Shown: positions 3,822 through 50,750, counted from the stretch's first letter. The stretch: 64,000 nt of DNA from Candidatus Omnitrophota bacterium (GCA_021735655.1 JAIPGM010000002.1:1-64000), one strand, 5' to 3'. A program made the numbers and translations. The notes: a model not told the origin generated them from the sequence alone.

Positions 3822-3855
3822 TAGTGAAAAGCTATATTACAGGAGGTGGTAAGCG

Positions 3856-4239: not shown

Positions 4240-4250
4240 GAGGTATCATA

Positions 4251-4439
4251 ATGAAAGCGATCGTAAATCAGGAAACATGTACAGGTTGTACTTTATGCGC
4301 TCAAGCCTGTCCGGATATCTTTGAAATGGATGGTGAAAAGGCAAAAGTTCTTGTTGACGTTGTAGCGAAAGATAAAGAAGAATGCAGTAAGAAGGCAGCC
4401 GATGAATGTCCGGTTACGGCCATATCTATAGAAGAATAA
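4251..4439 (+). CDS. Small single-cluster ferredoxin
   Basis: CTGCTLCAQACP ... CP cluster motif, 62 aa. GGAGG RBS before the ATG at 4251. The track ORF 4206 is an N-terminal over-extension. Confidence 0.75.
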   Translation: MKAIVNQETCTGCTLCAQACPDIFEMDGEKAKVLVDVVAKDKEECSKKAADECPVTAISIEE

Positions 4440-4455
4440 TGAAAGGAGGCGAGAG

Positions 4456-7617: not shown

Positions 7618-7633
7618 TTGTGAAGGAGGGGAT

Positions 7634-8059
7634 ATGAGAGATCATGTTTATAAAGTTGTTGAGCTTGTCGGGTCTTCAAAAGCCACCATAGAAGATGCGG
7701 TTAAAAACGCTCTTTCCAAGTCGTCGGAATCTATCAGAAATTCACGATGGTTTGAGGTTAATCAAATAAGGGGGGAAATAGAAGACGGCGAAGTATCGTA
7801 TTGGCAGGTTGGGTTAAAGCTGGGGTTTACAGTCGAAGGGAGCAGCCGGAAAGAAGAGGTACCTGTCGAAACAAGTAAAAAAGCGGCAAAAACAGGGAAA
7901 TACCAATGCAAGGTTTGCAGCTATATCTATGATCCCGAAAAAGGTGACCCGGATAACGGCATAAAAGCGGGGACCTCTTTTAAAGATTTACCCGATGACT
8001 GGAAATGCCCGGAATGCGGTGTAAACAAGGATCAATTTGAAGAAATGAAGGGAGAGTAA
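7634..8059 (+). CDS. Dodecin - rubredoxin fusion protein
   Basis: N-terminal ~70 aa match the dodecin fold sequence ([12 protein letters not shown] ... [11 protein letters not shown] ... [13 protein letters not shown]). C-terminal ~50 aa are a rubredoxin ([14 protein letters not shown] ... WKCPECG). Confidence 0.75.
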
Positions 8060-18214: not shown

Positions 18215-20224
18215 ATGAACCCTTTTTTGAATGTTTTAGAATCACAAAATATACCGAAAGAATCCTGTTTAAAAAGAGCAGAGTTGACCACCCTGCAGGT
18301 TAATATGGGCGACCTTTGCAATCAAAGCTGTTCGCATTGTCATGTGGGCTCCTCGCCCCAGGGAAAGAAGATCATGCCGCTGGAAGTGGTTGACCGAATT
18401 TTAGAGTTTCTTTCAAAAAACAGAGGGCTGATATTGGATATAACCGGCGGCGCGCCGGAACTCAATCCCAATTTCGATTATTTCCTTGAGAAAGCAAGGC
18501 CGCTGGCCAGGGAGATTGTCATAAGGTCGAATCTGACCGTGTTTTTTGAACCCGGTAAAGAATACTTGCCCGAATTTTTTAAAAGGAATAACATACATCT
18601 TATATGTTCACTTCCCTGTTATGAGGAAAAAAATGTAGACGCCCAAAGAGGCCTGGGTGTATTTGAAAAGAGTATAAAAGCGCTTCAGCTGCTAAATAGC
18701 TGTGGATACTCTCAAGATAAAGAACTGGTCTTAGACCTTGCATATAATCCTAAAGGTATAAATCTGCCTCCTCAACAGGATATCCTTGAAAGAGAGTACA
18801 GAGAAAACCTTAAAAAAAGTTACGGAGTGGAATTTAACAGACTCGTTGCTATGACCAACGTTCCGATAAAAAGATTCAAGGAATATTTGGAAGCCAACGG
18901 CGAATATAGTAATTATGTCCGGCTCCTGGAAGATAATTTCAATCCTGATACGGTTACCGGTATTATGTGTCGGCGGTATCTCAGTGTAGGCTACGACGGA
19001 AAATTATACGACTGCGATTTTAACCAATCACTTAACTGGGCTTTAAAGGACGAGAAGGCTAAGCCTCTTAGTATAGATAAAGTAGATATAAAAGATATTG
19101 AAAACAGAGATGTTATGGTGGGGGAGCACTGTTTTTCATGTACCGCAGGCTTCGGTTCAAGCTGCCAGGGAGCGCTTGACATTAAGGAAACCGTAAAAGC
19201 GTATTACGGCAAAGTCCTTAAAACCACAAAAGACCTAAAGACGACCGCCTGTTGTTCAGTAGATGCTATGCCTAAAAAGCAAAGAGAATACTTGGCTAAA
19301 ATCCACCCCGAAATTTGTGATAAATTTTATGGCTGCGGCTCTCCTATCCCACCGCTTTTAAAGGACCTAAAAGTTTTGGATTTAGGTTGTGGCACAGGCA
19401 GGGATACTTATCTGGTTTCACAGATGGTAGGGAGCAGGGGTTTTGTTATCGGCGTCGACATGACCGATGAACAACTCGATATAGCGAGGAAGCACATTGA
19501 TTACCAGACAGAAAAATCCGGTTTTAAAAAGCCTAATGTTGATTTTAGGAAGGGTTATATAGAAAACCTAAAAAGTGTCGGTATAAAGGATAACTCTATA
19601 GACTTGGTTATATCAAACTGCGTTATTAATCTTTCACCGGATAAGATAGGGGTGTTCTCGGAAGTTTTCCGTGTCTTAAAACCGGGAGGTGAATTTTATT
19701 TCGCCGATGTATTCTGCGGCCGCCGGATGCCGGAACACCTCAAGCATGACTCGGTACTTTACGGTGAATGCCTGGGAGGGGCGCTTTACATAGAGGATTT
19801 TCGCCGTAGTTTAAGAAAAATCGGCTGTTTGGATTATAGAGTAGTAACTTCCCGAAGAATAGCGCTTAACAATAAAGAAGTTGAAGAGAAAGTCGGCGGG
19901 ATTGATTTTTACTCTATGACTATACGGGCTTTTAAGCTGGATGATTTGGAAGACATCTGCGAAGATTATGGCCAGACTGCTGTTTATCTTGGCACGATAT
20001 CCGGATGCGCGCACCAATTCAAACTTGACGATCATCATCTGTTTTTTACCGGCAAACCGATGCTTGTGTGTGGGAATACCGCTTCAATGCTTTCAAATAC
20101 ACGGTACGGTAAACATTTTAAAATAGTTGGAGATAAAAGCCGTCATTTTGGGCCGTTTCCCTGTGGGCCAACTCCCGCGGCATCAAAGACCGATGTAGTC
20201 AAAACCGGCGGCAGTTGTTGTTAA
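18215..20224 (+). CDS. arsSM: Fusion of arsenosugar-type radical SAM protein (ArsS-like) and arsenite S-adenosylmethionine methyltransferase (ArsM-like)
   Basis: N-term has the radical SAM cluster motif CNQSCSHC plus LSVGYDGKLYDCDFNQSL and a Cys-rich CFSCTAGFGSSC region. C-term has ArsM Cys pairs (TACCS, YGCGSP), the SAM motif VLDLGCGTGRD and VLKPGGEFYFADV. One continuous 669-aa ORF. Confidence 0.7.
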   Translation: MNPFLNVLESQNIPKESCLKRAELTTLQVNMGDLCNQSCSHCHVGSSPQGKKIMPLEVVDRILEFLSKNRGLILDITGGAPELNPNFDYFLEKARPLAREIVIRSNLTVFFEPGKEYLPEFFKRNNIHLICSLPCYEEKNVDAQRGLGVFEKSIKALQLLNSCGYSQDKELVLDLAYNPKGINLPPQQDILEREYRENLKKSYGVEFNRLVAMTNVPIKRFKEYLEANGEYSNYVRLLEDNFNPDTVTGIMCRRYLSVGYDGKLYDCDFNQSLNWALKDEKAKPLSIDKVDIKDIENRDVMVGEHCFSCTAGFGSSCQGALDIKETVKAYYGKVLKTTKDLKTTACCSVDAMPKKQREYLAKIHPEICDKFYGCGSPIPPLLKDLKVLDLGCGTGRDTYLVSQMVGSRGFVIGVDMTDEQLDIARKHIDYQTEKSGFKKPNVDFRKGYIENLKSVGIKDNSIDLVISNCVINLSPDKIGVFSEVFRVLKPGGEFYFADVFCGRRMPEHLKHDSVLYGECLGGALYIEDFRRSLRKIGCLDYRVVTSRRIALNNKEVEEKVGGIDFYSMTIRAFKLDDLEDICEDYGQTAVYLGTISGCAHQFKLDDHHLFFTGKPMLVCGNTASMLSNTRYGKHFKIVGDKSRHFGPFPCGPTPAASKTDVVKTGGSCC

Positions 20225-22279: not shown

Positions 22280-23329
22280 ATGGACAACAATAAAAAAATA
22301 TTTCTTTATGATTCGAAGCCTTATGATCAAGAAGCTTTTGATCAGGCCAATAAAAAGCATGGTTTTGATATCCAGTATTTCAATGGGCATCTAAACCATA
22401 ATACAGCTTGTTTGTCTAAGGGCAGTGATGCGGTTTGTGCTTTTGTTAACGATACAATAGATAAGCCGGTAGTGGAAGTTCTTAAAGAGTGTAATATCGG
22501 CTTAATTGCCTTACGCAGTGCCGGATATAACAATGTTGATTTAAAGGCAGCTTACGGCACTATCCATGTGGCCCGGGTGCCGGGGTATTCTCCTTATGCG
22601 GTGGCCGAACACGCCAGCGCTCTTTTATTGAGCCTGAACCGGAAAACTCATAAAGCTTATCACCGGACACGCGAGGGAAATTTTTCAATCAACGGCTTGA
22701 TCGGCTTTGACCTTCACGCTAAAACCGCTGGGGTTATCGGAACCGGAAAGATCGGGCGTTGTTTGATATCGATTCTGAAAGGCTTTGGGATGAAGGTCCT
22801 GGCCTATGATGTTTATCCCGATGAAGAATATGCAGAGGCTAGCGGCATTAGCTATACGGACTTGCCCGAGCTGTATGCTAAATCGGACATTATTTCTCTG
22901 CATTGCCCGTTAAACAAAGATACCTACCATTTGATCGACAACCAAAGTATAAACCAGATGAAGCCGGGTGTTTTTTTAATAAATACCGGCCGGGGAGGCC
23001 TGGTAAAAACTCAAGACCTCATTGAAGGGTTAAAGAGCGGTAAAATAGGCGCTGCCGGCCTGGATGTGTACGAAGAAGAAAGCGAGTATTTTTTTGAAGA
23101 TTTTTCAGCTTCGATGATCAGCGATGATATCCTGGCCCGGCTTTTGACCTTTCCCAATGTACTTATCACATCACATCAGGGATTTTTCACAAAAGAAGCG
23201 TTGAGCAATATTGCCGAAACTACTTTAGCTAATATTAAAGAGTATTTTGAAGGAGGTTTTTTAAAGAATGAAATCTGTTACCGCTGCGATAAACAATGCT
23301 GCAAGAAACAAAAACAGCGCTGCTTTTAA
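22280..23329 (+). CDS. ldhA: D-isomer-specific 2-hydroxyacid dehydrogenase (D-lactate dehydrogenase-like)
   Basis: GVIGTGKIGR NAD-binding motif and catalytic R/E/H region. The last ~20 aa (Cys-rich) arise from overlap with the sigma-factor gene and may not be real. Confidence 0.75.
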   Translation: MDNNKKIFLYDSKPYDQEAFDQANKKHGFDIQYFNGHLNHNTACLSKGSDAVCAFVNDTIDKPVVEVLKECNIGLIALRSAGYNNVDLKAAYGTIHVARVPGYSPYAVAEHASALLLSLNRKTHKAYHRTREGNFSINGLIGFDLHAKTAGVIGTGKIGRCLISILKGFGMKVLAYDVYPDEEYAEASGISYTDLPELYAKSDIISLHCPLNKDTYHLIDNQSINQMKPGVFLINTGRGGLVKTQDLIEGLKSGKIGAAGLDVYEEESEYFFEDFSASMISDDILARLLTFPNVLITSHQGFFTKEALSNIAETTLANIKEYFEGGFLKNEICYRCDKQCCKKQKQRCF

Positions 23330-24095
23330 GCAGAAACTAAAGAGTATTTTTATCGCTTACCAGGATAAAATTTATGGCCTGGCTTTGAGTATCTGCCGCA
23401 ATCCTAAAGACGCCGAAGATATCACTCAAAATACATTCAGTAAGATTATTCTTAATTTGGATAAATTCCGCGGCCAATCCAATATTGCTACCTGGATTTA
23501 CCGGATTAGCTATAACGAAGCTTTGATGTTTTTACGGAAAAAGCGCCGCGATTTGAGGTTACAGGACAATATCGATTATCATATCTTAAAAGACAGATCC
23601 GCGGTATTGGCGGATTGGCCGTTGCTTCCTGATGATTTATTGGTGAATAAAGAATTACACCGGAAAATCAATTCGTCCATACAAAGGCTGGATCTTAAGT
23701 ATCGCTTACCCTTGTTGTTGCATCATGTCCATGGCTTAGCGATAAAAGAGGCAGCTAAAGTTTTAGATATAAAGGCCAATTCCTTTAAAACCAGGCTCCA
23801 TCGGGCCTATCTAATGCTGCGGGGCGAGCTAACCGCCTATTTCGCCGATGCTCGGGAGGAAAAAATCGGTTTTAAAACATTGGTTTGCGATCGTTCGCTT
23901 AAATTCATTTATGATTATTCTTGCAATAAGCTCGGCAGCCGGCAGCGTTTAAGATTCGACCAGCATATTAAAGATTGCCGTCCCTGCCGTAGTTTTCTAA
24001 ACGATTATCAGCAGGCAATAAAAATAACTCAGTCTTTACAGTGTCGTGATTTACCAGAAGCGCTTCGGGAAAAACTAAAAACTCTTTTTACTTAA
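23268..24095 (+). CDS. ECF-type sigma-70 family factor with a C-terminal ZAS-like (H-x3-C-x2-C) zinc-finger extension
   Basis: Region 2 (DITQNTFSKIILNLDKFRG ... WIYRISYNEAL) and region 4 (LAIKEAAKVLDIKANSFKTRLHRA). An extra ~80-aa tail carries CDRS ... C ... HIKDCRPCRSF. Confidence 0.7.
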   Translation: MKSVTAAINNAARNKNSAAFKQKLKSIFIAYQDKIYGLALSICRNPKDAEDITQNTFSKIILNLDKFRGQSNIATWIYRISYNEALMFLRKKRRDLRLQDNIDYHILKDRSAVLADWPLLPDDLLVNKELHRKINSSIQRLDLKYRLPLLLHHVHGLAIKEAAKVLDIKANSFKTRLHRAYLMLRGELTAYFADAREEKIGFKTLVCDRSLKFIYDYSCNKLGSRQRLRFDQHIKDCRPCRSFLNDYQQAIKITQSLQCRDLPEALREKLKTLFT

Positions 24096-24106: not shown

Positions 24107-24162
24107 TTGAAACTTTTTTTATTTTTTAACATCTAAATCAGAATAAGGAGGTGAGGGTTATG
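24107..24162 (+). promoter_or_regulatory. ECF (sigmaE-type) promoter GAAACTT-N16-TCTAAAT plus conserved leader/RBS. Copy 1 of a duplicated ~56-58-bp element.
   Basis: ttgaaactttttttattttttaacatctaaatcagaataaggaggtgagggttatg. A near-identical copy is at 30909-30964. Confidence 0.6.
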
Positions 24163-24546
24163 TTAAGAAAGATATGTTCGTTGGGCCTTGGTTTGGTAAT
24201 GTTGTTTAGCCTGTCTGGATGCGCCTTGCTTTTAGCCGGGGCTGCCGGCGGCGCCGGAACAGCATTTTGGCTGGGCGGTAAGTTGGAAAGCGAAGTAGCG
24301 GCTAGTTACCAAAGGACTATCGATGCTAGCAAGCGAGCCTTGAGTTCGCTGGGTATGGAGATAGTTAAAGAAGCAAAATCAGATGAGGTTACTCAGATTC
24401 GCAGTGAGTACACTGATGGTAGAAAAGTCTGGTTAGATATCCGTAAGTTTAGCGAAAAAACTTCAAAGTTGGAAATTCGCGTTGGTGCCAAGGGTGATCA
24501 GGCAGCATCAACTAAGCTGTTGGAGCGGATCAAGAAATACCTTTGA
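24160..24546 (+). CDS. Lipoprotein (DUF3568-like)
   Basis: Lipobox LSGC after a hydrophobic signal, Gly-rich region. ATG at 24160 preferred over the GTG at 24151. Confidence 0.55.
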   Translation: MLRKICSLGLGLVMLFSLSGCALLLAGAAGGAGTAFWLGGKLESEVAASYQRTIDASKRALSSLGMEIVKEAKSDEVTQIRSEYTDGRKVWLDIRKFSEKTSKLEIRVGAKGDQAASTKLLERIKKYL

Positions 24547-24548
24547 TT

Positions 24549-26684
24549 TTAAGCTTCACAGGTTTTCCGGGTAAAGACATTGCAGATGAACCAAGGCATA
24601 AGGTAAAGGGCAATTAAGGCGGCCATCAAAGAACCGGCGATTATAATACCGCCAAAGCGTTGAGTAGGCGGAAATTGCGAAAAAAGAAATACCCCAAAAC
24701 CGAGGCCGATGATCAACAGAGTGTTAAATACCGGGTTCCAGAGATAAGTTCTTACTTTTTCCCAGCGCCGCCGGGTAGTTTTTTCTTCGGCTTTGATCCG
24801 GCGCCAGTATTTGACCATGTGGATCATCGTATCAATGCCGATAGCAATAGCCACATTCAACGAAGGAGCAGCCACTATATCCAGAGGCATGCCGATTAAG
24901 CCAATAGCGCCCAAGCTAATTAGGGGGATTATTAAAATTCCTAAAGTCATCGATAAACTTACTGGCAGCGAACGGGAAACCAGCCAGCTGATCAGGAAAA
25001 AAATAAACAACAATCGGAACAAGCCGAAGACCAGGCTTGAGCTTACTAGTTTTGCCAGGCGCCCCTGCAAGGCGTAGACCCCGCCGGTGATTTCCGGGAC
25101 AAAGCCGTTTTCGCGTACCAGTTCTTTTAATTCAGCAATGATTTCTAAACGGGTTTTTGTCCGTCCGGTTTCTTTCATCCGCAGTAGAAAAAGCCCGTTT
25201 TTTCGGTCAGGGCTGATAAAGATTTTTCCGATTTCGTTATGGCTGGGTTTTTCCATAATATTCAGAAGCCAATCCCAGCCTAAAAAGAAAGAAAAGGGAT
25301 GTTGTCTGGCCTGAGCCATTAAAACCGGCAGCGAGATCACACTGCCGACAGCTTGGTGTTTTTCTAAGGCAGTCTGGAGCTGCCATAATTGATTATAGCT
25401 TTTGGTGTTATTCAATTTATTTCCGCTTTCAGTCTTTACCACGATAATCAAAGGGTTACTGCCGCCGCTTTGATCAATATAGCGTAAGCCTTCAGTGATC
25501 GGGTCACTCTTTTTAAAATAACTGAATATTGAAGGGTCATTTTTCAACCAGGCTAAGCCCGGCAAAAGTAAGATGCTTAAGCCGATTAAGATTAAGCGAA
25601 AAGCTTTTTTTCGCACTTTTACTTTCTGATAAATAAACTGTTCGCTTTCTTCAAAATAATCATTTTTTACCTGGGAATTTTGAACCCGGCTCAAAAATAA
25701 AGGATAGATTAGATAGGCGCAAGCCATGGCGATAATTGCGCCCAGAGCGCCGGATATCCCTAGTTCACGCAGCGGCTTTGCTGGCACGGTAATTAAGCTT
25801 AAAAAGCCCAGTAAAGTTGTAAACATACTCCAAAATGATGGGCTTAAGGTGTATTGAATTGATTTCTTTATCCGTTGTTGATCGCCAGAAGTATAAGCCA
25901 GATGTTTCCAGTTATAGGTAAGAAAGATTATATGCGATAGAGTAAGTACAAAAGTAATCGTAGTTAAGTTTGCCGTAAGCAAGCCGATCTTAATATTAAA
26001 TACTTTAGCTGCGATTATAGTCAGCATGGCGGCGTTAAGGCAAGCTAAGAGTGTCCCGAGCAAAATAGACCAGGAACGGAAAATAAATAACATTAATCCG
26101 GCGAAAACCAAAAAAGTCAGCAAGGTAAACAGCCGGAAATCTCTAACTAAATTTTTTTGGATTAGTTTTGTGATGTAGGGGGCTCCGGAAATTCGCAGCC
26201 GGAAATTATCGCCGCTAGCTTTGTTTACTAGTTTTTCGATTGCCGTAAGGTTTTCTTCCAGGCCTTGGCCGGGCAGCACAGCAATGATGTTAGTGGATTT
26301 TTGATCATCGGCGATTAAAAGGCGCCGCCAGAGAGGGCTTTTTAAGCCGGTAGCAAAATCTCCCGGGCCGGTAGCCAGGCTGATCACACTGATTATTTGC
26401 GGTAGAGCATTGATTTTGGCACTTAGATCTTCAACTTTTTTAAGATAAAGCGGTGAGTCGATTTTTCCTTCAGCGCTGATGATCAGCTGATCATCCTGCC
26501 GCTTGAATATTTTTGAAATTCGGCCTTCAGCTTGAGCCTGAGGATCGTGGCTGGAAAAAAAGAAGTTTTGGTCTACTTGGGGGGTTAAATCGATATATTT
26601 AGCGATAACAAAGATATTGGCGGCGGTTAAAAGAATAATTAAAATAAATTTTAATTTTAAGGCCGCAGTTATTGCTTTAAGCAT
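24549..26684 (-). CDS. MMPL/RND-superfamily membrane transporter
   Basis: 711 aa with two 6-TM bundles each followed by a large soluble loop (RND/SSD architecture). Only gene on the minus strand. Confidence 0.6.
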   Translation of the reverse strand: MLKAITAALKLKFILIILLTAANIFVIAKYIDLTPQVDQNFFFSSHDPQAQAEGRISKIFKRQDDQLIISAEGKIDSPLYLKKVEDLSAKINALPQIISVISLATGPGDFATGLKSPLWRRLLIADDQKSTNIIAVLPGQGLEENLTAIEKLVNKASGDNFRLRISGAPYITKLIQKNLVRDFRLFTLLTFLVFAGLMLFIFRSWSILLGTLLACLNAAMLTIIAAKVFNIKIGLLTANLTTITFVLTLSHIIFLTYNWKHLAYTSGDQQRIKKSIQYTLSPSFWSMFTTLLGFLSLITVPAKPLRELGISGALGAIIAMACAYLIYPLFLSRVQNSQVKNDYFEESEQFIYQKVKVRKKAFRLILIGLSILLLPGLAWLKNDPSIFSYFKKSDPITEGLRYIDQSGGSNPLIIVVKTESGNKLNNTKSYNQLWQLQTALEKHQAVGSVISLPVLMAQARQHPFSFFLGWDWLLNIMEKPSHNEIGKIFISPDRKNGLFLLRMKETGRTKTRLEIIAELKELVRENGFVPEITGGVYALQGRLAKLVSSSLVFGLFRLLFIFFLISWLVSRSLPVSLSMTLGILIIPLISLGAIGLIGMPLDIVAAPSLNVAIAIGIDTMIHMVKYWRRIKAEEKTTRRRWEKVRTYLWNPVFNTLLIIGLGFGVFLFSQFPPTQRFGGIIIAGSLMAALIALYLMPWFICNVFTRKTCEA

Positions 26685-26796
26685 AGTTCTAGTTTAAATT
26701 ATATTTTTACTTAGTCAACCGCTAAATCAGCCAGATTTTCGTATTGGAAGCGCCGATATATGCTATAATAAGAGCAAAAATAATCAAGGGGCGATT

Positions 26797-28194
26797 ATGC
26801 AGTTAGCACGCAAAATTCTTTTTTATTTTTTTGTTTTGGCCTATTTAGTCCTCTGTCCTTTGCTTATTTTCTATTCTTTAGGCTATATTTATCAACCAAA
26901 AAAGAAAGATATTTCGCAAACCGGCCTGATCCACCTTGTCAGTATTCCGGCCGGAGCCCAGGTTTATCTGGATGGCCGGCGTTTCAAAGATAAAACTCCG
27001 GCTACGATCAGCGAACTTAATCCGGGAAGCTATCGGGTAAAGTTAAGGCTAAAGAACCGCCGGCCTTGGGTTCATGAGGTAACGGTTAAAGCGGGAAAAT
27101 CAGCGGCTTTTAAAAATATTCTCCTTTTGCCGCACAGTTTCGATAAAACAACTATCGGCCCCAAACGGGTTTATACCAATTTATATTCGCTAAAAAATTC
27201 CGACTATCTGATTGTTCAGCAAGGCCCCCGGCTTAAGGAATTTTATGTTTATGACTTAGCCGAAAAAAGTCTCAAAACCATTATTGATAAGGATTCTCAA
27301 TATGCCGAATTAGCGGTGGAGCGTTTATTCAGCGCTGCCGGCAGCACTTATCTGATTATCTACGGCGGTTCTTTATGGGACCGGCAGTATTTGCTTATTG
27401 ATTTTAAGGAAAAAAAGCCCGGTTTAAAAGAAATAAGCCGGCTTTTTTCTCGGCATCCCGATTGGCTGGTTTGGTCGGAAGATTTACCTGAGGATATTTT
27501 TTCTATTTATGGCGTCGGCCTCGACCGCTTGGACATTAAAAATTTATCGCTCTATCCGCAGTATTTTGAGAACATTAAGGGCTTTGGCTTGATGGATAAA
27601 CAGTTTTATGTCCTGGGCAAGGATAACTTGATCAGAAAATTAAGCCTGGATAAGCAGGAGGAGGCTATTCTATTTGAGGATGAACATTTGGGCCGGGAGT
27701 TGTTCGCCAAATCAGGGTTTTATCGCATAGAGCCGCTTAATAAGGATAAGCTTATTTTTTGGGGCCGGCGCGGTGACCTGGTGATGACTGTGCCGCCTTA
27801 TGCCATTTTTGATCAGGGGGTTTTGGGCATGGAATATGAGCGGTTTAACAGCCGGCTTCTGTTCTGGACCAAGCATGATATCTGGCTGGCCGAGTTTAAC
27901 GGCCAGGCCCAAGACGATGTTTTATTCAGGCAGCGCCTGCGCCTTAATAAGATATATGAAGGGGGCTTTAATTTAAGCCAATGCTTTTGGGTTTATAGCG
28001 CAAGCAATTTGCTGCTTAAAGACAAAACCGAGATTTATCTTTTGGGCTTAACTCCGGACGGCCGGCACCATAGAGAACATATTGTCAGCGCTAAACAAAA
28101 TACTGAAGTATTTTACTATGAGCCTGAAGGTTGTTTGTACTATTTAGATAAAAAGGGGGCCTTGGTGAAGCTTAAGCTTTTAGCGGCTGATTAG
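26797..28194 (+). CDS. PEGA-domain membrane-anchored protein
   Basis: N-terminal TM helix then a PEGA-like beta domain (SIPAGAQVYLDGRRFKDKTPATISELNPGSYRVKLRL). Confidence 0.5.
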   Translation: MQLARKILFYFFVLAYLVLCPLLIFYSLGYIYQPKKKDISQTGLIHLVSIPAGAQVYLDGRRFKDKTPATISELNPGSYRVKLRLKNRRPWVHEVTVKAGKSAAFKNILLLPHSFDKTTIGPKRVYTNLYSLKNSDYLIVQQGPRLKEFYVYDLAEKSLKTIIDKDSQYAELAVERLFSAAGSTYLIIYGGSLWDRQYLLIDFKEKKPGLKEISRLFSRHPDWLVWSEDLPEDIFSIYGVGLDRLDIKNLSLYPQYFENIKGFGLMDKQFYVLGKDNLIRKLSLDKQEEAILFEDEHLGRELFAKSGFYRIEPLNKDKLIFWGRRGDLVMTVPPYAIFDQGVLGMEYERFNSRLLFWTKHDIWLAEFNGQAQDDVLFRQRLRLNKIYEGGFNLSQCFWVYSASNLLLKDKTEIYLLGLTPDGRHHREHIVSAKQNTEVFYYEPEGCLYYLDKKGALVKLKLLAAD

Positions 28195-28207
28195 TAATAG
28201 AGATATT

Positions 28208-29854
28208 ATGGATTTTCAATATTCACGCCAGGGGGTTAAAGGTAGAGAAAAGAGTTGGCAGCGGTTTCTGGAGGTTCTGCCCGGGTTCCTGAGCTGGACA
28301 GTGATTATCGGAATAGTGGTGCTATCGGTGTTACAGCCTTTAACGGCGGCGGTGGTCATGATCGCTTTTCTGCTTTATTGGCTGCTGCGGCTTATCTACA
28401 TGAACATTTTTCTTTTGCTTTCGTATACCCGTCTGGAGATCGAAAAAACTACTGATTGGCAGGAGTGTATTGCCTCTGTGGACCGCTTGAAAGTCCAGAC
28501 GCCGGTTTTCTGCGGCCCGGCTAAACAGCGCAGCCTAAAAGAAACAATTGCCGCCCGTATCCATTACCGGCAATTGAGGAAGCTTAAAACAAGCAAGAAC
28601 CTGCCGCCTTCCTCGGAAAATATTTACCACTTGCTTATTTTGCCGGTTATCCGCGAAGCCCGGCAAGTGGTTGAGCCGGCTATTGAAGCGGTTAAGCAGG
28701 GGAGTTTTCCGGCCGAAAGATTTCTGGTAATCATTGCTCTTGAGGATTCAGCTTCCCAGAAAGTCAAGCAGCAGACGGATGAACTGCGGGAAAAATATAA
28801 AAACGTTTTTTTAGATTTTTTAGTCATTTTACATCCGGAAAACCAACCCGGGGAAGCTAAAGTTAAGGGGGCCAATGTAAGCTTTGCCGCCCGCCGGGCT
28901 CAAAGTTTTTTCAGCGCCAAAGGCATTAAGCCGGAAAATATCCTGGTATCCTGTTTTGACGCCGATACAGTGGCCAATCCCGATTATTTCAGCTGTCTTA
29001 CTTATCATTATCTGATAAATCCTCTTCGCCTGCAGTCAAGCTATCAGCCGATCCCGGTTTATCACAATAACATTTGGGAGGTTGCCGGTTTTGCCAGGAT
29101 CCTTGATATCGGCACTTCTTTCTTCCAGCTGATCGAAGCAACTAATCCCGGTAAATTGGTTACTTTTTCCAGCCATAGTATGAGTTTTAAGGCCTTGCAG
29201 GATGTCGGCTACTGGCCGGTGGATATGATTTCTGATGACTCGGCTATTTTCTGGAAGGCATTTATCCATTATCAGGGCAATTATCGGGTTAGGCCCATTT
29301 ATACAACAGTTTCTATGGATATTGCTGCCGGGCCAGGCCTAAAGGAGACTTTTACCGCAATTTATAAACAGAAGCGGCGCTGGGCCTGGGGAATAGAAAA
29401 TTTTCCGATTGTGGTAAGAGGATTTTTTCAGGTAAAAAAAATCAGTTTCAGCCGCAAGCTAAGTTACGGTTATAAATTGCTGGATGGTTTTGTCTCCTGG
29501 GCTACCTGGTCGTTTTTGTTATTACTCGGCAGCTGGCTACCGGCATTTTTTGCTTCTCGGGAATTTTCTTCCAGCACGGCCTATTACCTTGCCCCGCGCA
29601 TCCGCGGGATTATGTTTAGCCTGGCTTCAATCGGAATTATTATTTGTACGGTAATAAGTTTATTACTGCTTCCCCGAAGAGAAGGTAAACACGGAATCCT
29701 AATCGGGGTCAAACATATACTTGAATGGTTGTTTATCCCGGTGGCGCTTTTATTCTTGAGTGCCATACCGGCGCTTGATGCCCAAACCCGCCTTATGTTC
29801 GGAAAATATATGGAGTTCTCGGTAACCGGAAAATACCGTAAATCAAAATCCTAA
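28208..29854 (+). CDS. Processive family-2 glycosyltransferase (polysaccharide synthase, cellulose/chitin-synthase-like)
   Basis: N- and C-terminal TM helices flank a GT-A domain with motifs ALED, KVKGANVS, FDADTV (DxD), ISDDSA and Q-K-R-R-W (QxxRW). Confidence 0.7.
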   Translation: MDFQYSRQGVKGREKSWQRFLEVLPGFLSWTVIIGIVVLSVLQPLTAAVVMIAFLLYWLLRLIYMNIFLLLSYTRLEIEKTTDWQECIASVDRLKVQTPVFCGPAKQRSLKETIAARIHYRQLRKLKTSKNLPPSSENIYHLLILPVIREARQVVEPAIEAVKQGSFPAERFLVIIALEDSASQKVKQQTDELREKYKNVFLDFLVILHPENQPGEAKVKGANVSFAARRAQSFFSAKGIKPENILVSCFDADTVANPDYFSCLTYHYLINPLRLQSSYQPIPVYHNNIWEVAGFARILDIGTSFFQLIEATNPGKLVTFSSHSMSFKALQDVGYWPVDMISDDSAIFWKAFIHYQGNYRVRPIYTTVSMDIAAGPGLKETFTAIYKQKRRWAWGIENFPIVVRGFFQVKKISFSRKLSYGYKLLDGFVSWATWSFLLLLGSWLPAFFASREFSSSTAYYLAPRIRGIMFSLASIGIIICTVISLLLLPRREGKHGILIGVKHILEWLFIPVALLFLSAIPALDAQTRLMFGKYMEFSVTGKYRKSKS

Positions 29855-29856
29855 AC

Positions 29857-30900
29857 GTGAAAAGAGCTGTCAAATTTGCTTTATTTATTTTTCTCTTGAT
29901 AATCCCGCAAAAGACTTACGCTGAAGAAGTAAAGGTGGGGGTTACTTTCAGCCAGGTGCAGTGTGAGTATTTAGATTTGAATTGGCGAAAGATTTATAAA
30001 AAAACCATGGCTTTGGATTTAGATGTCATCCGTTTAGGGGCTTATTGGAGCCGGATTGAGAAAAGCCGCGATAAATTTGATTTTAGCGAACTTGATTGGC
30101 AGATTCAGCAGGCAAAAGAAAATAATATCCCGGTATTGCTTACTGTGGGAATGAAAGCGCCGCGCTGGCCGGAATATTTTATCCCGGCCTGGCTGATGAA
30201 GGATTTATCTTTTCGTTTTGGCTCAGCAGTTTCCGATCGAAAAATTATTAAGGAGCGTAGTCTGCTCTTTATCCGGCGGGTAGTTGAGCGCTACAAAAAG
30301 GAAGCTATCATTGTTGCCTGGCAGGTAGAAAATGAACCATTGAACAGAGCCGGCCCCAAGGATTGGCGGATACGGAACGATTTTTTGCAAGAAGAGATTG
30401 ATCTGGTAGAGAAACTGGATACGAGAAGCCGTCCTATCGTTATAAATGCGATGACTTATCTTAACCGAATATTAAGATTTTTTAACCGGCTTATTTACAC
30501 CAAGAATCCGGTCTATCAGATAATCGATATTGCTGATATTCCTGCTTTTAATATTTACTCGACTATCGGCCATAAACTCATTGGCCAGAAAATCTGTTTT
30601 TTGACTGTTCCTCAAAAACGTTTAAAATACCTTAAACGCTTTGTTGATTATGCGAAAGCTCAGGATAAAACGGTCTGGGTTACTGAGCTTCAGGCCGAAC
30701 CCTGGGAGCCAGGGGAATTGGTGCATATCCGTAAGGAAGCAGCGATTACCTGCAGAGCCGAAGATTTCCCGGTTAGTTTTGGGGAGCTGGAGTATTTAGG
30801 GGTGGATACGGTTTTTTTCTGGGGAGTTGAATACTGGTTTTACCGGATGCAGTATTATAAAGATAAAAGCTGGCTGGATGCTTTTGAGCAGATACCTTAA
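29857..30900 (+). CDS. Secreted glycoside hydrolase, clan GH-A (GH5-like TIM barrel)
   Basis: Signal peptide. Acid/base NEP motif (VAWQVENEPLN) and a later nucleophile Glu region (VWVTELQAEPWE). Confidence 0.55.
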   Translation: MKRAVKFALFIFLLIIPQKTYAEEVKVGVTFSQVQCEYLDLNWRKIYKKTMALDLDVIRLGAYWSRIEKSRDKFDFSELDWQIQQAKENNIPVLLTVGMKAPRWPEYFIPAWLMKDLSFRFGSAVSDRKIIKERSLLFIRRVVERYKKEAIIVAWQVENEPLNRAGPKDWRIRNDFLQEEIDLVEKLDTRSRPIVINAMTYLNRILRFFNRLIYTKNPVYQIIDIADIPAFNIYSTIGHKLIGQKICFLTVPQKRLKYLKRFVDYAKAQDKTVWVTELQAEPWEPGELVHIRKEAAITCRAEDFPVSFGELEYLGVDTVFFWGVEYWFYRMQYYKDKSWLDAFEQIP

Positions 30901-34413: not shown

Positions 34414-35013
34414 ATGTCGCAAAGCATTGAGAATAAAGTAGTTAGCAGGATTTATGGTAAGAATAGGGGTTGGGTATTCACTCCAAATCACTTTCTTGAC
34501 CTTGGAAGCCGTACAGCCGTGGCTCAAGCCTTGGGGCGGTTGGCAAAAGCCGGTACTATTCGCCGATTGGCACATGGACTATATGATTATCCTGAGAAAC
34601 ACCCTACGCTGGGCGATCTTCCGCCTAACTATGAGCGGATAGCCCAAGCTTTGGCAGGAAGGGATAGTTTAAAAATTCAGCCATCGGGGGCGTATGCCGC
34701 CAATCTGCTCGGGCTTACTGAGCAGGTTCCTGCAAAGATTGTTTTTCTGACTGACGGCCCTAATCGCAAAGTACAAATAAACAAACAGCAGGTTGTCTTA
34801 AAAAGGACAACTCCTAAAAATATGGCCACTGCCATGCGGGTGAGCGGTCTGGTTATCCAGGCTCTGCGTCATTTAGGCCAAGATCATGTGGATGATAAAA
34901 TAATCGGGATGCTTAAGAAAAGATTATCCAGCGATGACAAGCGTCAGCTTATAAACGACCTTCGTTACGCTCCTGTATGGATAGGAAATATATTTCGGCA
35001 ATTACAAGGATAA
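34414..35013 (+). CDS. abiEi: AbiEi-family antitoxin/transcriptional regulator (type IV TA / abortive infection)
   Basis: N-terminal winged-helix AbiEi_4-like region (VFTPNHFLDLGSRTAVAQALGRLAKAGTIRRLAHGLYDY). Confidence 0.7.
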   Translation: MSQSIENKVVSRIYGKNRGWVFTPNHFLDLGSRTAVAQALGRLAKAGTIRRLAHGLYDYPEKHPTLGDLPPNYERIAQALAGRDSLKIQPSGAYAANLLGLTEQVPAKIVFLTDGPNRKVQINKQQVVLKRTTPKNMATAMRVSGLVIQALRHLGQDHVDDKIIGMLKKRLSSDDKRQLINDLRYAPVWIGNIFRQLQG

Positions 35014-35020
35014 GAAGCCT

Positions 35021-36046
35021 GTGGACAAATTCGTATTATTGAGTGATAAAGACAAACGCGCCTATTTCGAAGTAGCCGCGGCTGACTTGAATGTAATGCC
35101 ACAGCTTATTGAAAAGGATTTCTGGGTTTGTTGGATACTCAGGACCCTTTTTTCGTTACCGTCATCAGGCAGTCACTTGACATTTAAGGGCGGTACATCA
35201 CTTTCAAAATGCTATGACGTTATCAGGCGTTTTTCAGAAGATGTCGATATTTCGATAGAAAGGTCTTTTTTATCAAGCCAACAGGCCATTGAACCTAAAA
35301 AACAAGAAAGTAACAAAGAAAACCAGCGAAGACTTGAAAGGTTACAGTTAGCCTGTCAAGCAAAGATCAGCGGCACTCTAATCCCAGAACTGAAAAAAAG
35401 TATTGCCGCTATTCTGACCGATAGAAAAAAATGGAATCTCGAAATCGATTCTAACGACGCATTAAAGCAGACAGTTTTGTTTACTTTCCCACACGCTTTG
35501 ACAAATAGTATGGAAAGCTACGTAAAGGCCGCTGTTAAAATTGAGTTTGGTTCCAGAGCCGACCATTGGCCTGTTGAAAATATGGCTGTTACGCCATATG
35601 TTGCTAATGTTTCAGACGATGTGACTATTGAAGGTGCATCAGTGCGTGTTTTAGCCGCAGAGCGGACCTTTTGGGAGAAAGCGACCATACTTCATATGAT
35701 ATATCATTATCCTGAAGGTAAGAATGTGCCTCCGCGGATGTCGCGGCACTATTATGATTTATTCGCGATGGTAGATTCTTTTGTATACAAGAAATCTTTA
35801 GAAAAAATATCGCTATTGAAACATGTATCCGATCATAAGTCTTTATTTTTTAAAGCTAACTGGGCGCATTATGAAGAGGCTAAACCGGGCAGCTTGCGGC
35901 TGGTGCCGCGCGATGACCAAATAAGCCAGTTGAAAACTGATTACCGACAAATGCAACAAATGTTTTTTGAGGATCCCCCGTCATTTGAGAGTGTTTTAGA
36001 GAAACTAAAAATAGCGGAAGATAAGATTAGCAGGGTCAAACAATGA
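35021..36046 (+). CDS. abiEii: AbiEii/AbiGii-family nucleotidyltransferase toxin (DUF1814)
   Basis: NTase motif FKGGTSLSKCYDVIRRFSEDVDI. 341 aa. Immediately downstream of abiEi. Confidence 0.7.
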   Translation: MDKFVLLSDKDKRAYFEVAAADLNVMPQLIEKDFWVCWILRTLFSLPSSGSHLTFKGGTSLSKCYDVIRRFSEDVDISIERSFLSSQQAIEPKKQESNKENQRRLERLQLACQAKISGTLIPELKKSIAAILTDRKKWNLEIDSNDALKQTVLFTFPHALTNSMESYVKAAVKIEFGSRADHWPVENMAVTPYVANVSDDVTIEGASVRVLAAERTFWEKATILHMIYHYPEGKNVPPRMSRHYYDLFAMVDSFVYKKSLEKISLLKHVSDHKSLFFKANWAHYEEAKPGSLRLVPRDDQISQLKTDYRQMQQMFFEDPPSFESVLEKLKIAEDKISRVKQ

Positions 36047-47444: not shown

Positions 47445-48548
47445 ATGGCTGAAGTAGTTTTAAAAAATATCACTAAATCTTACGCTAGCGGAGCTGACGC
47501 GGTTAAAGATATAAACCTTAAAGTAGAGGATAAGGAGTTTGTAGTTTTAGTTGGTCCCTCTGGTTGCGGTAAATCGACTACTTTGAGGATGATTGCCGGC
47601 CTTGAGCAGCCAACCAAAGGCGAAATTTATGTCGCTGATAAATTAGTAAATGAAGTTCCGGCAAAGGATAGGGATATTGCCATGGTTTTTCAAAACTATG
47701 CTCTTTATCCTCATATGAACGTTTACAATAATATGGCTTTTGCTCTGAAGTTACGTAACTATTCTCGTGAAGATATAGATACTCGGGTTAAAGATGCTGC
47801 TGAGATTTTGGGAATAAGTGCCTTAGTTGATAGAAGACCGCGACAAATTTCCGGTGGTGAACGCCAGAGAGTTGCCGTCGGAAGAGCAATCGTCCGGAAA
47901 CCTCAAGTATTCCTTTTTGATGAACCCTTGAGTAATCTTGATGCTAAGATGCGGGTTCAGATGCGAACTGAGATTCATAAGCTTCATTTAAAAATTCAGA
48001 CCACAATGATTTATGTAACTCACGATCAAACTGAGGCTATGACTTTAGGAGATCGAATTGCAGTAATGAAGGATGGTGAGATTTTACAATTTGATACACC
48101 GCTGAATGTTTATGATAATCCAGTCAGTAAGTTTGTTGCCGGATTTATTGGTTCACCGCCAATGAACTTTATGAATGGTAAAATGGTTAAAGATGATTCT
48201 GGTCTTTATTTTGACGAAGGAAGTTTTCGGGTCAGAGCTTTAGATGAGATGTATGAAAAGCTAAATGCTTATGCCGGAAAAGACATTATTTTTGGAATAC
48301 GTCCAGAAAATATTTACGATAAACTTTTTGCTTCTTATGCAACTGCCGATAATACCCTAAGTGTCCTTTGTGAGGTTATGGAAACTATGGGTTCGCAAAA
48401 CCATCTTCATTTCTCTACCGGAAAACACACCCTGATAGCTGTAGTTGAAGCCTCTAATAAACCTTCTATCGGAAGTATGGTTGAAGTAGTTTTCGATATG
48501 AGGAAAGTCCATTTTTTTGATCCTTCAAACGAACGTATCATTGTATAA
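47445..48548 (+). CDS. ABC transporter ATP-binding protein (MalK/UgpC-like with C-terminal TOBE-type domain)
   Basis: Walker A GPSGCGKST, signature LSGGERQRV, Walker B LFDEPLSNLD. Confidence 0.8.
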   Translation: MAEVVLKNITKSYASGADAVKDINLKVEDKEFVVLVGPSGCGKSTTLRMIAGLEQPTKGEIYVADKLVNEVPAKDRDIAMVFQNYALYPHMNVYNNMAFALKLRNYSREDIDTRVKDAAEILGISALVDRRPRQISGGERQRVAVGRAIVRKPQVFLFDEPLSNLDAKMRVQMRTEIHKLHLKIQTTMIYVTHDQTEAMTLGDRIAVMKDGEILQFDTPLNVYDNPVSKFVAGFIGSPPMNFMNGKMVKDDSGLYFDEGSFRVRALDEMYEKLNAYAGKDIIFGIRPENIYDKLFASYATADNTLSVLCEVMETMGSQNHLHFSTGKHTLIAVVEASNKPSIGSMVEVVFDMRKVHFFDPSNERIIV

Positions 48549-49800
48549 GCGTAATATTCTTATAAGCTTACCGTTTCTATTAATAACTTCAGTCATTTTA
48601 TCTCTCCATCCCAAAGGGGGACCTCTCTTTTTAATTCCAGCCGCAGTCAGCATTGTGATATTTATAGTTGTCTGCAAGATCCGAACTTTTATTATTTCTC
48701 AGCATCAAGGTGAATTTGAGAATTTTGATGAAAAAATAAATATTTTAAATAAAAGCATCGAAGAGAAAAATAAGATTTTGAACTCGTTTCCTAAAAAAAG
48801 TGAGCGAGCTTCCTTCCTTTTTGATATTTCTAAGAGTTTAATTGAACTAATTGAACTGGAAGAAATTTTTAATTCATTAATTAAAATCCTGGAAAAACTT
48901 TTTCCCGAAGCCGACAGTATTTTGATTTTCAGTTTTGACAAGGAAGGCGGGGCCTTAGAGCTTAAGCACTCTCTGAAACGTAAATTTAATACGATAAAAG
49001 AGAAAAAAGGCAGTAGCTTGGATAACTGGGTATTACATCAAAATCGTTCGCTGTTGATTGAAGATATTACTAAAGATTTTCGTTTCGATGCATCTAAGCT
49101 TACGGCTTATTATGAGCGTCGAGCACATTCATTCGTTTTAAGTCCTTTGTCGGTTGGCCGCAGGTCATTGGGGTTGGTGCGGATTGAAAGCCAAAGGCCA
49201 GGGGAGTTTTCTTTAGACGATTCAAGGCTCCTGCGGAATGTTTGTGATTTGGGCGTAGTGGTTCTGGAGCGTTCAGTTCTTTTTAAAAAAATTAAGGAGT
49301 TAGCCACCAAGGATGCTTTAACCGGACTATTTGTGCGTAGTTATTTTTCAGAGTATTTTTCGAGAGAATTAAAACTTATTCAGCGCCAAAACGGTAGGCT
49401 AGGCCTGATTATGCTTGATATTGATGATTTCAAAAAAATAAACGATACTCATGGTCATGTAGTGGGTGATTTGGTTATAGTGAAATTAGCTGACATTTTG
49501 CAAAAGAGTCTCACTAAAAGATCCGGTATAGTTTCTCGGTTTGGTGGAGAAGAGTTTACATTGCTTTTGCTTGAAATCAGCCTTAAAGAGCTTGTTGCTT
49601 GCGCTGAGGAAATTCGTTATGCAGTCGCGGCAGCCAATTTAGCATTTCGCAGAAAGAAAATTCAGTTTACAGTTTCTTTAGGGGCGGCTCTTTATCCGGA
49701 CAATGCTACAACGCCTACTGGATTAATTGAGGAGGCCGATCGAGCACTCTATAAGGCTAAACGGGAGGGTAAGAACAAGACGTGTTATTCTGGACAGTAA
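48517..49800 (+). CDS. Membrane-anchored GAF-GGDEF diguanylate cyclase
   Basis: TM helices, GAF-like middle, GGDEF core (RFGGEEF, DIDDFKKIND). Confidence 0.7.
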   Translation: MILQTNVSLYKRNILISLPFLLITSVILSLHPKGGPLFLIPAAVSIVIFIVVCKIRTFIISQHQGEFENFDEKINILNKSIEEKNKILNSFPKKSERASFLFDISKSLIELIELEEIFNSLIKILEKLFPEADSILIFSFDKEGGALELKHSLKRKFNTIKEKKGSSLDNWVLHQNRSLLIEDITKDFRFDASKLTAYYERRAHSFVLSPLSVGRRSLGLVRIESQRPGEFSLDDSRLLRNVCDLGVVVLERSVLFKKIKELATKDALTGLFVRSYFSEYFSRELKLIQRQNGRLGLIMLDIDDFKKINDTHGHVVGDLVIVKLADILQKSLTKRSGIVSRFGGEEFTLLLLEISLKELVACAEEIRYAVAAANLAFRRKKIQFTVSLGAALYPDNATTPTGLIEEADRALYKAKREGKNKTCYSGQ

Positions 49801-50750
49801 TAGCTATTGGGGAAGTAATTTTTTTAATCGAGGCTATTGTTTTTTTAGTTTGGTTCCGTAGTCAGGCTAACAAGAAGCGAGAAAATCTGTCTAAACAGGT
49901 TGCAAGTTTAGAAGCATCCGAATTCCAAATAAGAACAAAACTTGATAACTTGGAATCTATTCTTGCTGAGCGTTTTCTTTTTTATGATATGACCCGCCGG
50001 CTCGCTCCTTTACTTGATAAAAAAGAGCTTTTTGCTAATTTTTTGCAAGAGTTAAGCTATCTTGGTCCGATTGAGACAATGGAATTGTCGACAGAAATAA
50101 TGCCCGAGGAGTACTTGAGGTTTGAACTAGGCAAGGGGGTTAGGGAGGTATTGTATTTAAAGACAAGCTCAAAGAAGGTTGCTGAATATGCTTCTTACTT
50201 TGTAAAGATATTGCGTTTATGTCTTGAGCGTATTCGTCTTTATGATCGATTACAGCAGCTGTCTATTTACGATTCTTTAACTAAGATTTATAATCGTCGC
50301 CATTTCATGCAAAGATTTCAAGAGGAATTTGAACGGGCTAAAAAGTTTAAGCATAATTTGGCATTCCTAATGATTGATATTGATCATTTTAAAAAAGTTA
50401 ATGATACCTATGGTCATTTAGTCGGTGACGTAATCTTAAGAGAGGTTGCTCGTTTGATTAAAAAGAGTACAAGAGGAATAGACTTAGTAGCTCGTTTTGG
50501 CGGAGAGGAGTTCTCGGTAGTTTTGCCGGAGACCGACAAAGGCGGCGCAATTATGCTGGCCGAGCGTATTAATCAACATATTAATCGAGCACCAATTAGT
50601 GCTTTTGACGAAAAAATTATAACAAAGGTAAGCGTTGGGGTTGCCTCTTACCCTGAGAATGCGGTTAATTCTGATATTCTTCTTGAAGTTGCTGATAAGG
50701 CTCTTTATAAGGCTAAAATTTCCGGTCGCAATCGGGTTTCTTGGTTTTAG
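49782..50750 (+). CDS. GGDEF-domain diguanylate cyclase (tandem paralog)
   Basis: RFGGEEF, IDIDHFKKVND. Confidence 0.75.
   Translation: MLFWTVIAIGEVIFLIEAIVFLVWFRSQANKKRENLSKQVASLEASEFQIRTKLDNLESILAERFLFYDMTRRLAPLLDKKELFANFLQELSYLGPIETMELSTEIMPEEYLRFELGKGVREVLYLKTSSKKVAEYASYFVKILRLCLERIRLYDRLQQLSIYDSLTKIYNRRHFMQRFQEEFERAKKFKHNLAFLMIDIDHFKKVNDTYGHLVGDVILREVARLIKKSTRGIDLVARFGGEEFSVVLPETDKGGAIMLAERINQHINRAPISAFDEKIITKVSVGVASYPENAVNSDILLEVADKALYKAKISGRNRVSWF

Follow-up and report, generated by a model that had tools for sequence, protein, structure and literature searches.

Synthase-dependent glycan secretion is known from a handful of systems, those for cellulose, poly-N-acetylglucosamine (PNAG), alginate, Pel, hyaluronan and chitin, in which the partners of the synthase set how the polymer is handled after synthesis. 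Here we describe a locus of comparable composition in a stretch of 64,000 nucleotides (nt) from a metagenome-assembled genome (MAG) of Candidatus Omnitrophota; this whole stretch is referred to as the window, and positions are counted from its start. The locus comprises, in this order, a gene for a PEGA-domain protein, a gene for a family 2 glycosyltransferase (GT2) and a gene for a glycoside hydrolase (GH). We lean, with some reserve, toward the view that this module carries out synthase-dependent glycan secretion through a two-gene core, making and exporting a beta-linked sugar polymer. This view draws support from published systems, in which a synthase is accompanied by a hydrolase and an anchored, non-homologous partner, and the logic of synthase, non-canonical partner and hydrolase that a preliminary description of the locus had proposed has its precedents in BcsA/B/Z, CslA/GlxA/CslZ and CcsA/B/Z. 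Searches of the literature (PEGA with synthase or polysaccharide; Omnitrophota with glycosyltransferase) found no description of a PEGA-GT2 pairing.

The PEGA and GT2 genes form an invariant pair

We collected related loci with a pattern-based scan, taking one genome per species, and compared their gene content by tblastn and clustering of open reading frames (ORFs). The resulting 80 loci came mostly from Omnitrophota, with the complete Velamenicoccus archaeovorus LiM genome among them, and eight were of the Candidate Phyla Radiation (CPR)/Patescibacteria type. In all of the about 70 non-CPR loci that include upstream DNA (two of them truncated at contig ends), the PEGA gene was found directly 5' of the GT2 gene, and a 4-bp start/stop overlap between the two genes was common. 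The flanks of the pair were otherwise unshared, the next commonest neighbor cluster being present in 10 loci. The clade with a shorter GT2 (about 500 amino acids [aa]) also has a shorter PEGA protein (300 to 335 aa). The invariant unit is the PEGA protein together with the GT2, and the GH is a facultative third gene.

In the window, the three ORFs lie on the plus strand where the preliminary description had placed them, and all are conserved, real genes. Their products match database entries from a Candidatus Omnitrophica MAG at 100% identity. In the ORF map, 13 bp separate the PEGA gene from the GT2 gene and 2 bp separate the GT2 gene from the GH gene; this spacing, the sole basis for the statement, suggests that the three genes are co-transcribed.

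GT2 homologues also occur outside the Omnitrophota. The CPR proteins (39 to 42% identity) come from Andersenbacteria, Doudnabacteria and MAGs labeled Saccharibacteria (loci L067, L068, L070, L072, L074, L079 and L080), where the GT2 gene belongs to a conserved block that encodes a coiled-coil lytic transglycosylase, a 113-aa membrane protein, the GT2, a MraY/WecA-type transferase, a DUF192 protein and rplU. The 113-aa membrane protein takes the partner's position in these loci, which have no PEGA protein. A full-length family member is also encoded by Brevibacterium litoralis (WP_349827436.1, annotated as hypothetical; L169, 8001-9770), with an E value of 5e-91 to the family profile and a C-terminal FAVTEK; it has neither a PEGA nor a GH neighbor, and as the product of a cultured actinobacterium it could be tractable for enzyme work. 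The GT2 gene of a Spirochaetales MAG (L170, 6001-7506) stands alone.

Sequence class and predicted structure of the GT2

We compared the GT2 with Pfam and obtained a match to Glyco_trans_2_3 (PF13632) over aa 248 to 443 (E = 1e-11, 45.5 bits, cutoff 27), a model that was matched by 20 of 20 diverse members of the GT2 family. Among named models, PgaC/IcaA was matched by 19 of these 20 members, CelA by 7, Chitin_synth_2 by 3 and NodC by 2, all of which describe processive synthases. A DPM-like enzyme had been put forward as the class to be set against a processive synthase in a hidden Markov model (HMM) classification, and the 20 members matched no DPM/GtrB-type or lipid-glycosyltransferase model by sequence, even at E ≤ 1. 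The named families do not include the protein as a member: it scored 45.5 bits against PgaC/IcaA (TIGR03937), where the equivalog cutoff is 422.3, and 15.1 bits against BcsA/CelA (TIGR03030), where it is 699. By its sequence, the GT2 is a member of the cellulose-synthase-like, membrane-embedded class.

When 1.84 billion cluster representatives were searched with the profile, only 451 relatives were obtained at E ≤ 1e-30 and 2,238 at E ≤ 1e-3; the GT2 thus represents a discrete family and not the fringe of a big one. More than 3,400 homologues were found in the protein database. The GT2 is thus the founder of a discrete, very divergent and uncharacterized family.

The 20-member profile could be aligned with Escherichia coli BcsA (hhalign, 94%, E = 1e-7) and with PgaC (96%, E = 1e-9), and the aligned columns place E179 at the DDG aspartate and pair the other motifs as given in Table 1. 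The motifs listed in the preliminary description were mostly found in regular-expression searches (DAD, SDD and QKRRW in the GT2 and NEP in the GH); the exception was KxGxN, which is absent literally, the actual motif being KGAN. K220 and N223 of this motif are invariant in the A1 alignment and, among 122 diverse family members, are kept in 112 and 109, respectively. DAD is the sole DxD in the protein, with D251 in 117 and D253 in 111 of the 122 members. At SDD, D344 is kept in 114 and position 343 is E or D in 113, and at QKRRW, the Q, R391 and W are kept in 115, 112 and 111.

A further motif, overlooked in the preliminary description, is the C-terminal [FY]xVTxK, which reads FSVTGK in this GT2. 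Its positions are kept as well as the catalytic residues (F/Y in 112, V in 85, T in 96 and K in 111 of the 122 members). In BcsA and poplar CesA8, the Phe, Val, Thr and Lys of the FxVTxK gating loop contact uridine diphosphate (UDP) and are needed for activity (PMC10592267).

The AlphaFold2 (AF2) model of the GT2 (predicted local distance difference test [pLDDT] 86.5, predicted template modeling score [pTM] 0.87) has helices at 13-42 and 44-79, a GT-A domain at 140-370, a helix with QKRRW at 378-408 and further helices at 414-441, 458-487 and 496-530. The QKRRW helix is predicted to follow the GT-A domain and to precede the membrane helices of the C-terminal part, and two N-terminal transmembrane (TM) helices come before the GT-A domain, so that the earlier placement of QKRRW between TM helices agrees with the model. 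The top Foldseek ranks were BcsA, hyaluronan synthases and Chs1, and the model could be aligned to BcsA and hyaluronan synthase over 363 to 375 residues. It fits PcManGT as well as it fits these synthases, and we take PcManGT to be non-processive. The claim that the GT2 is a processive synthase is therefore borne out for the class, given the named models and the motifs that align with BcsA and PgaC, but processivity itself can only be inferred because of the equal resemblance to PcManGT.

The PEGA/beta-propeller partner

The PEGA protein is a member of Pfam PEGA (PF08308, aa 45 to 104, E = 6e-10, 39.3 bits, cutoff 20.8), and a short-form partner, in L061, likewise matches this HMM. Its AF2 model (pLDDT 89.1) consists of an N-terminal helix (2-27), a sandwich (30-110) and an all-beta domain (116-460), for which Foldseek retrieved the beta-propellers of Lp49 (an antigen with an Ig domain plus propeller), BamB and WD40 proteins. 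The protein sequence had no match among PDB sequences. A BcsB-like partner had been expected here; Pfam gives PEGA only, and the model, with its TM helix, PEGA sandwich and beta-propeller, indicates a protein that is not BcsB-like in fold.

Across 44 homologues, the mean frequency of the top residue was 0.70 for aa 1 to 28, 0.61 for the PEGA domain and 0.48 for the propeller. The best-conserved segment is thus the N-terminal tail with the TM helix, which fits the expectation of a specific intramembrane contact. Six residues are invariant, namely, G29 at the boundary between the TM helix and the PEGA domain and G43, P51, L74, Y79 and W91 within the PEGA domain. In the same homologues, the propeller has no invariant residue and hence no sign of a catalytic site, which makes an enzymatic role of the PEGA protein unlikely. 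The net charge is about +2.2 before the TM helix and about +0.4 after it; these flank charges moderately favor an N-in/C-out topology, which would place the PEGA domain and the propeller in the periplasm.

The secreted hydrolase

The GH has a predicted signal peptide, no lipobox cysteine and no hydrophobic segment beyond the signal peptide, and its homologues share equivalent hydrophobic N termini. E158, N159, E160 and E277 are invariant in 31 homologues, down to 29% identity. By the convention of clan GH-A, in which the glutamate of beta-strand 7 is the nucleophile, E277 would take this role.

Against Pfam, the GH matched the N-terminal half of GH42 (PF02449; E = 9e-10; 38.9 bits, cutoff 21), covering 129 positions (11 to 139) of a 376-position profile, and also GH10 (E = 5e-6). 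Its 347 aa compare with about 670 to 700 aa for GH42 structures. The family profile gave weak PDB matches, over the first half of the barrel, to GH5, GH42, GH35, GH10, GH39 (PslG) and GH158, about equal for GH5, GH42, GH35, GH10 and GH39. Assignment to GH42, and with it the database label "beta-galactosidase," was rejected as unsupported, the GH42 match being partial and other GH-A families scoring alike. GH8, the BcsZ type, was not matched in Pfam, NCBIfam or PDB searches, in which every match was to clan GH-A. The HMM classification thus upheld clan GH-A, the NEP motif and the signal peptide of the earlier assignment, but the protein fits no single GH family. By its sequence, it is an intact, functional-looking clan GH-A enzyme that could be assigned to none of the known GH families. 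A retaining clan GH-A enzyme would be consistent with the beta-linkages expected when an inverting GT2 uses alpha-linked UDP-sugars, a matter of consistency and not proof.

More than 1,000 GH homologues were found in the protein database. At L081, two GH paralogues (3300-4484 and 7001-8056) lie about 2.5 kb apart and are followed by MsrA/B, MMPL and alpha-amylase/branching-enzyme genes; these paralogues suggest that members of the GH family also serve outside the synthase module. Relatives from soil metagenomes are found among small soluble GT2s, large membrane proteins and metabolic genes, contexts that are uninformative on the substrate.

Proposed mechanism and alternatives

Starting from the observed gene order, conservation, motifs and fold class, we propose the following mechanism. 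The GT2 would be an inverting UDP-sugar synthase whose cytoplasmic GT-A domain (DAD, SDD and QKRRW) extends the non-reducing end of a beta-linked chain, elongation taking place in the cytoplasm at the QxxRW tryptophan, as in BcsA, hyaluronan synthase and PgaC. The chain would be threaded outward between the few TM helices of the GT2, and the C-terminal FxVTxK tail would close over the bound UDP-sugar as a nucleotide gate, comparable to the gating loop of BcsA. The TM helix of the PEGA protein would dock on the GT2, in a manner comparable to that of the anchor of BcsB, the helices of PgaD and the helix of GlxA, and could perhaps complete a channel that is hard to form from four helices alone. 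The PEGA sandwich and the propeller would then be held in the periplasm over the channel exit, where they would receive or guide the polymer. In loci that include the GH, this enzyme would act on the same beta-glycan in the periplasm, trimming or releasing it as BcsZ, CslZ or PslG would.

Several observations weigh against this proposal. Neither the GT2 sequence nor the 20-member profile matched any PDB sequence, even at E ≤ 10. Only about four clear TM helices are predicted in the GT2, few for a channel. Its FxVTxK motif forms the extreme C-terminal tail after the last helix and not a loop preceding further TM helices, and a local alignment of this region with the IF3/gating loop of BcsA scored 36, against 32.7 ± 5.3 for shuffles, which is not significant; the resemblance to BcsA appears to hold at the level of the motif only. 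The CPR, Brevibacterium and Spirochaetales MAG homologues of the GT2 have no PEGA partner. Within the window, there is no linked outer-membrane exporter, PilZ domain or sugar-nucleotide gene. As to the GH, it is found 3' of the GT2 in only 4 of the 80 species-level loci (L007, L019, L029 and L037), and the closest relatives of the GT2 (L001 to L003, 68 to 69% identity) have no GH at the locus. At L081, it is apart from any GT2, beside its paralogue, Msr and an MMPL gene, and the distant relatives in soil metagenomes (30 to 35% identity) were never near this GT2. The preliminary description had expected the three genes to be conserved together; this expectation failed, the GH being elsewhere in other genomes while the PEGA and GT2 genes stay paired.

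It is accordingly possible, if on the doubtful side, that only the PEGA protein and the GT2 form a functional unit and that the GH is an unrelated neighbor, such as a periplasmic scavenger of host or environmental beta-glycans, an explanation that is compatible with the core of the model. The scarcity of the GH beside the GT2, its separate position at L081 and the entirely different contexts of its soil relatives all speak for it, as does the description of Omnitrophota in the literature as host dependent and equipped with extracellular carbohydrate-active enzymes (CAZymes). However, the PEGA-GT2-GH order recurs with few-bp gaps in at least 10 loci, whose genomic flanks are different and otherwise unshared and whose GT2s are at 50 to 70% identity; these include loci in other assemblies with unrelated flanks (L083/L084, L085, L086, L167 and L168). 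The pairwise identities of the GT2 and the GH are also correlated across nine trio loci (r = 0.71, Mantel P value of about 8e-4). This correlation argues against a recent independent insertion of the GH, although it weakens our own proposal in turn, being expected of any two vertically inherited genes. Moreover, a hydrolase beside the synthase is the rule in known synthase-dependent systems.

The product may also differ from what the term "exopolysaccharide," used in the preliminary description, implies. That term was an assumption: there is no linked outer-membrane exporter, and a housekeeping glycan of the envelope is at least as well indicated by the broad conservation across Omnitrophota. 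We therefore keep, as a tentative variant of the secretion model, a glycan that is not secreted but stays in the periplasm or envelope, with a function comparable to that of osmoregulated periplasmic glucans or of a polymer associated with the wall. Neither the window nor any of the 80 clustered loci has a linked outer-membrane porin or tetratricopeptide repeat (TPR) exporter, the pair is kept across very diverse Omnitrophota, V. archaeovorus included, as expected of a housekeeping role, and the CPR GT2 gene lies among cell-wall genes. Against this, exporters can be encoded elsewhere, and the loci come from a pattern-based scan and hence give no measure of universality in the phylum.

A wider version of the secretion model would have the PEGA-GT2 pair as a lineage-wide synthase system of the Omnitrophota, with a GT2 held in common with CPR/Patescibacteria. 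It would combine a four-helix synthase, a channel completed by the PEGA TM helix and a gate formed by the FxVTxK tail, and its product would be a housekeeping envelope glycan in ultra-small, host-dependent bacteria. We offer this version as speculation, and would not be surprised to see it fail.

We regard as improbable the explanation by which the GT2 is non-processive and PcManGT-like. In that case, a single sugar or a few sugars would be transferred, on the cytoplasmic side, to a membrane lipid or a glycan linked to a lipid, and the PEGA protein would act later on the flipped product or be an unrelated envelope protein. The fit of the structural model to PcManGT speaks for this explanation, but the GT2 is about 200 residues longer than PcManGT, carries a TM hairpin at its N terminus, keeps the FxVTxK tail and is tied to an obligate partner.

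Layout of the module and neighboring genes

The features of the module are collected in Table 1. Promoter and terminator scans of the locus found nothing above the level expected from shuffled sequence or background, respectively.

Table 1. Features of the PEGA-GT2-GH module, with positions counted from the start of the window
Feature	Positions	Strand	Description
Intergenic region, presumed promoter of the module	26685-26796		112 bp; role suggested by gene layout only
PEGA-protein gene	26797-28194	+	465 aa; predicted single-pass membrane protein with N-terminal TM helix, PEGA beta-sandwich and beta-propeller
TM helix of PEGA protein (aa 7-27)	26815-26877	+	Predicted; Kyte-Doolittle peak 2.71
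PEGA beta-sandwich (aa 30-110)	26884-27126	+	PF08308 match; model strands 30-109
Beta-propeller (aa 116-460)	27142-28176	+	About 33 beta-strands and no long helices in the model; predicted periplasmic
GT2 gene	28208-29854	+	548 aa; predicted membrane-embedded protein with cellulose-synthase-like fold; putative processive glycan synthase/translocase
KGAN of GT2 (aa 220-223)	28865-28876	+	Aligns with BcsA KAGN (hhalign)
DAD of GT2 (aa 251-253)	28958-28966	+	DxD metal/diphosphate-binding motif; aligns with BcsA DCD and PgaC DGD
SDD of GT2 (aa 342-344)	29231-29239	+	Counterpart of the TED catalytic base; aligns with BcsA VTEDA and PgaC ITEDI
QKRRW of GT2 (aa 388-392)	29369-29383	+	QxxRW on interface helix; aligns with BcsA QRIRW and PgaC QRLRW
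FSVTGK of GT2 (aa 537-542)	29816-29833	+	C-terminal [FY]xVTxK; fits BcsA/CesA gating-loop consensus; chance expectation of the regular expression 0.007
GH gene	29857-30900	+	347 aa, GTG start; predicted secreted clan GH-A (beta/alpha)8 enzyme; facultative third gene
Sec-type signal peptide of GH (aa 1-22)	29857-29922	+	MKRAVKFALFIFLLIIPQKTYA, ending in TYA, with predicted cleavage before EE; read from the sequence
NEP of GH (aa 159-161)	30331-30339	+	Predicted acid/base E160; aligns with NE(P) of GH42/GH5 structures
TEL of GH (aa 276-278)	30682-30690	+	Predicted nucleophile E277, inside conserved TELQAEPW block

The genes 3' of the module (rhodanese, Hsp20, cupin, DsrE-like, TauE, CrcB, DUF190, TrmO and an AbiE toxin-antitoxin pair) are unrelated to glycans, as is the remainder of the window, and for this reason we place the end of the module at 30900. 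Upstream, a gene of the MMPL/HAE3 type of the resistance-nodulation-division (RND) superfamily (24549-26684, minus strand) is divergent from the PEGA gene across 112 bp. MMPL homologues (38 to 48% identity) are no more than two genes away from the PEGA-GT2 pair or the GH at L022, L024, L040, L045 and L081/L105. The association is loose (about 6 of 81 loci) and could hint at a link to lipid or glycolipid export; a lipid-export function of the module was set aside as an explanation on account of this low count.

A DUF3568 lipoprotein-like gene (24151-24546) lies two genes upstream of the module, and similar genes were found directly 3' of the GT2 gene in L001 (7749-8135; 65% identity) and directly 5' of the PEGA gene in L066 (4543-4929; 47% identity). 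Farther upstream, a 275-aa ORF (23268-24095) encodes a sigma factor of the extracytoplasmic function (ECF) type (Sigma70_r2, r4_2) that appears to be fused to a C-terminal part bearing a weak zf-HC2 anti-sigma motif; this ORF shares about 60 nt with the end of the 2-hydroxyacid dehydrogenase-like ORF before it.

Diguanylate cyclases (GGDEF) are encoded by two neighboring genes (48517-49800 and 49782-50750), the first with a GAF domain; cyclic di-GMP (c-di-GMP) signaling therefore exists in the organism, though the GT2 carries no PilZ domain, which was also absent from 20 family members by Pfam. A c-di-GMP-regulated system was rejected because of this absence and the distance of the GGDEF genes (18 kb). 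A separate PilZ gene was found near the trio in one locus only (L083, three genes 3' of the trio).

Elsewhere in the window, the genes for a DUF6088 protein and, after it, an AbiEii nucleotidyltransferase toxin (34414-36046) likely form a type IV toxin-antitoxin or abortive-infection pair, and a 669-aa ORF (18215-20224) combines radical S-adenosylmethionine (SAM), DUF3641 and class I SAM methyltransferase domains.

Significance

What is new here is a divergent synthase family, a new type of partner in which a PEGA sandwich is joined to a beta-propeller, and an unassigned GH-A family, in a phylum with almost no experimental glycobiology. If our reading is right, the module would offer a compact natural synthase that builds its channel and its gate in a different way. 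It would also supply a defined substrate for a new family of glycoside hydrolases, and give access to the surface chemistry of two large, uncultured phyla whose members have been described as attached to other cells. The practical value would lie in glycan biochemistry and in the reading of Omnitrophota genomes; no concept is overturned.

Comparison with known systems

Among more distant relatives, the hyaluronan synthases (Chlorella virus and Xenopus) and chitin synthases are 10 to 12% identical to the GT2. These enzymes have a WGTR-type gating loop rather than FxVTxK and are not known to need a protein partner. PcManGT (Pyrobaculum calidifontis, PDB 6YV7), which takes part in N-glycan assembly, is 14% identical to the GT2; it has 346 aa and three TM helices and lacks the N-terminal TM pair.

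Compared with BcsA-BcsB-BcsZ of E. coli and Rhodobacter sphaeroides, the GT2 is about 15% identical to BcsA, and its HMM score is nowhere near the cutoff (15 versus 699 bits). It has neither PilZ nor the TM7-8 of BcsA, and its FxVTxK stands at the C-terminal end, whereas that of BcsA lies in the loop between IF3 and TM7. BcsB has carbohydrate-binding and flavodoxin-like domains and a C-terminal TM anchor; the partner here is anchored at its N terminus and predicted to consist of PEGA and propeller domains. BcsZ is a GH8 enzyme, in contrast to the clan GH-A assignment here. The gene order here is partner-synthase-hydrolase, and a BcsC-like exporter is missing.

PgaC/IcaA, the poly-beta-1,6-N-acetylglucosamine synthase, is the best sequence-profile relative of the GT2, both by hhalign (96%, E = 1e-9) and by the matches to TIGR03937 (19 of 20 members). 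The two are alike in their small size and in having two N-terminal and few C-terminal TM helices, the segment VGYW..DMI(S/T)(D/E)D..I.WK is almost identical, and PgaC also depends on a membrane partner, the small PgaD. They differ in that the GT2 reaches 45 bits against a cutoff of 422 and in that E. coli PgaC has no FxVTxK tail. The partner here is not PgaD-like, and the locus has no PgaB-type deacetylase/GH153 and no PgaA porin.

The arrangement is paralleled by CslA-GlxA-CslZ of Streptomyces, and also by the clostridial CcsA-CcsB-CcsZ, in which a synthase is translationally coupled to a non-homologous partner and a hydrolase gene lies downstream, as here. CslA, with its PilZ elements, shares 27% identity with BcsA, and the GT2 is far more divergent; GlxA is encoded downstream of its synthase, whereas the PEGA partner is encoded upstream. 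The propeller described here has no invariant residues, whereas GlxA is a radical copper oxidase and has a Cys-Tyr cofactor. In its architecture, however, GlxA resembles the PEGA protein, since it has an N-terminal TM helix that has been proposed to bind CslA and, beyond it, an extracytoplasmic, propeller-shaped domain.

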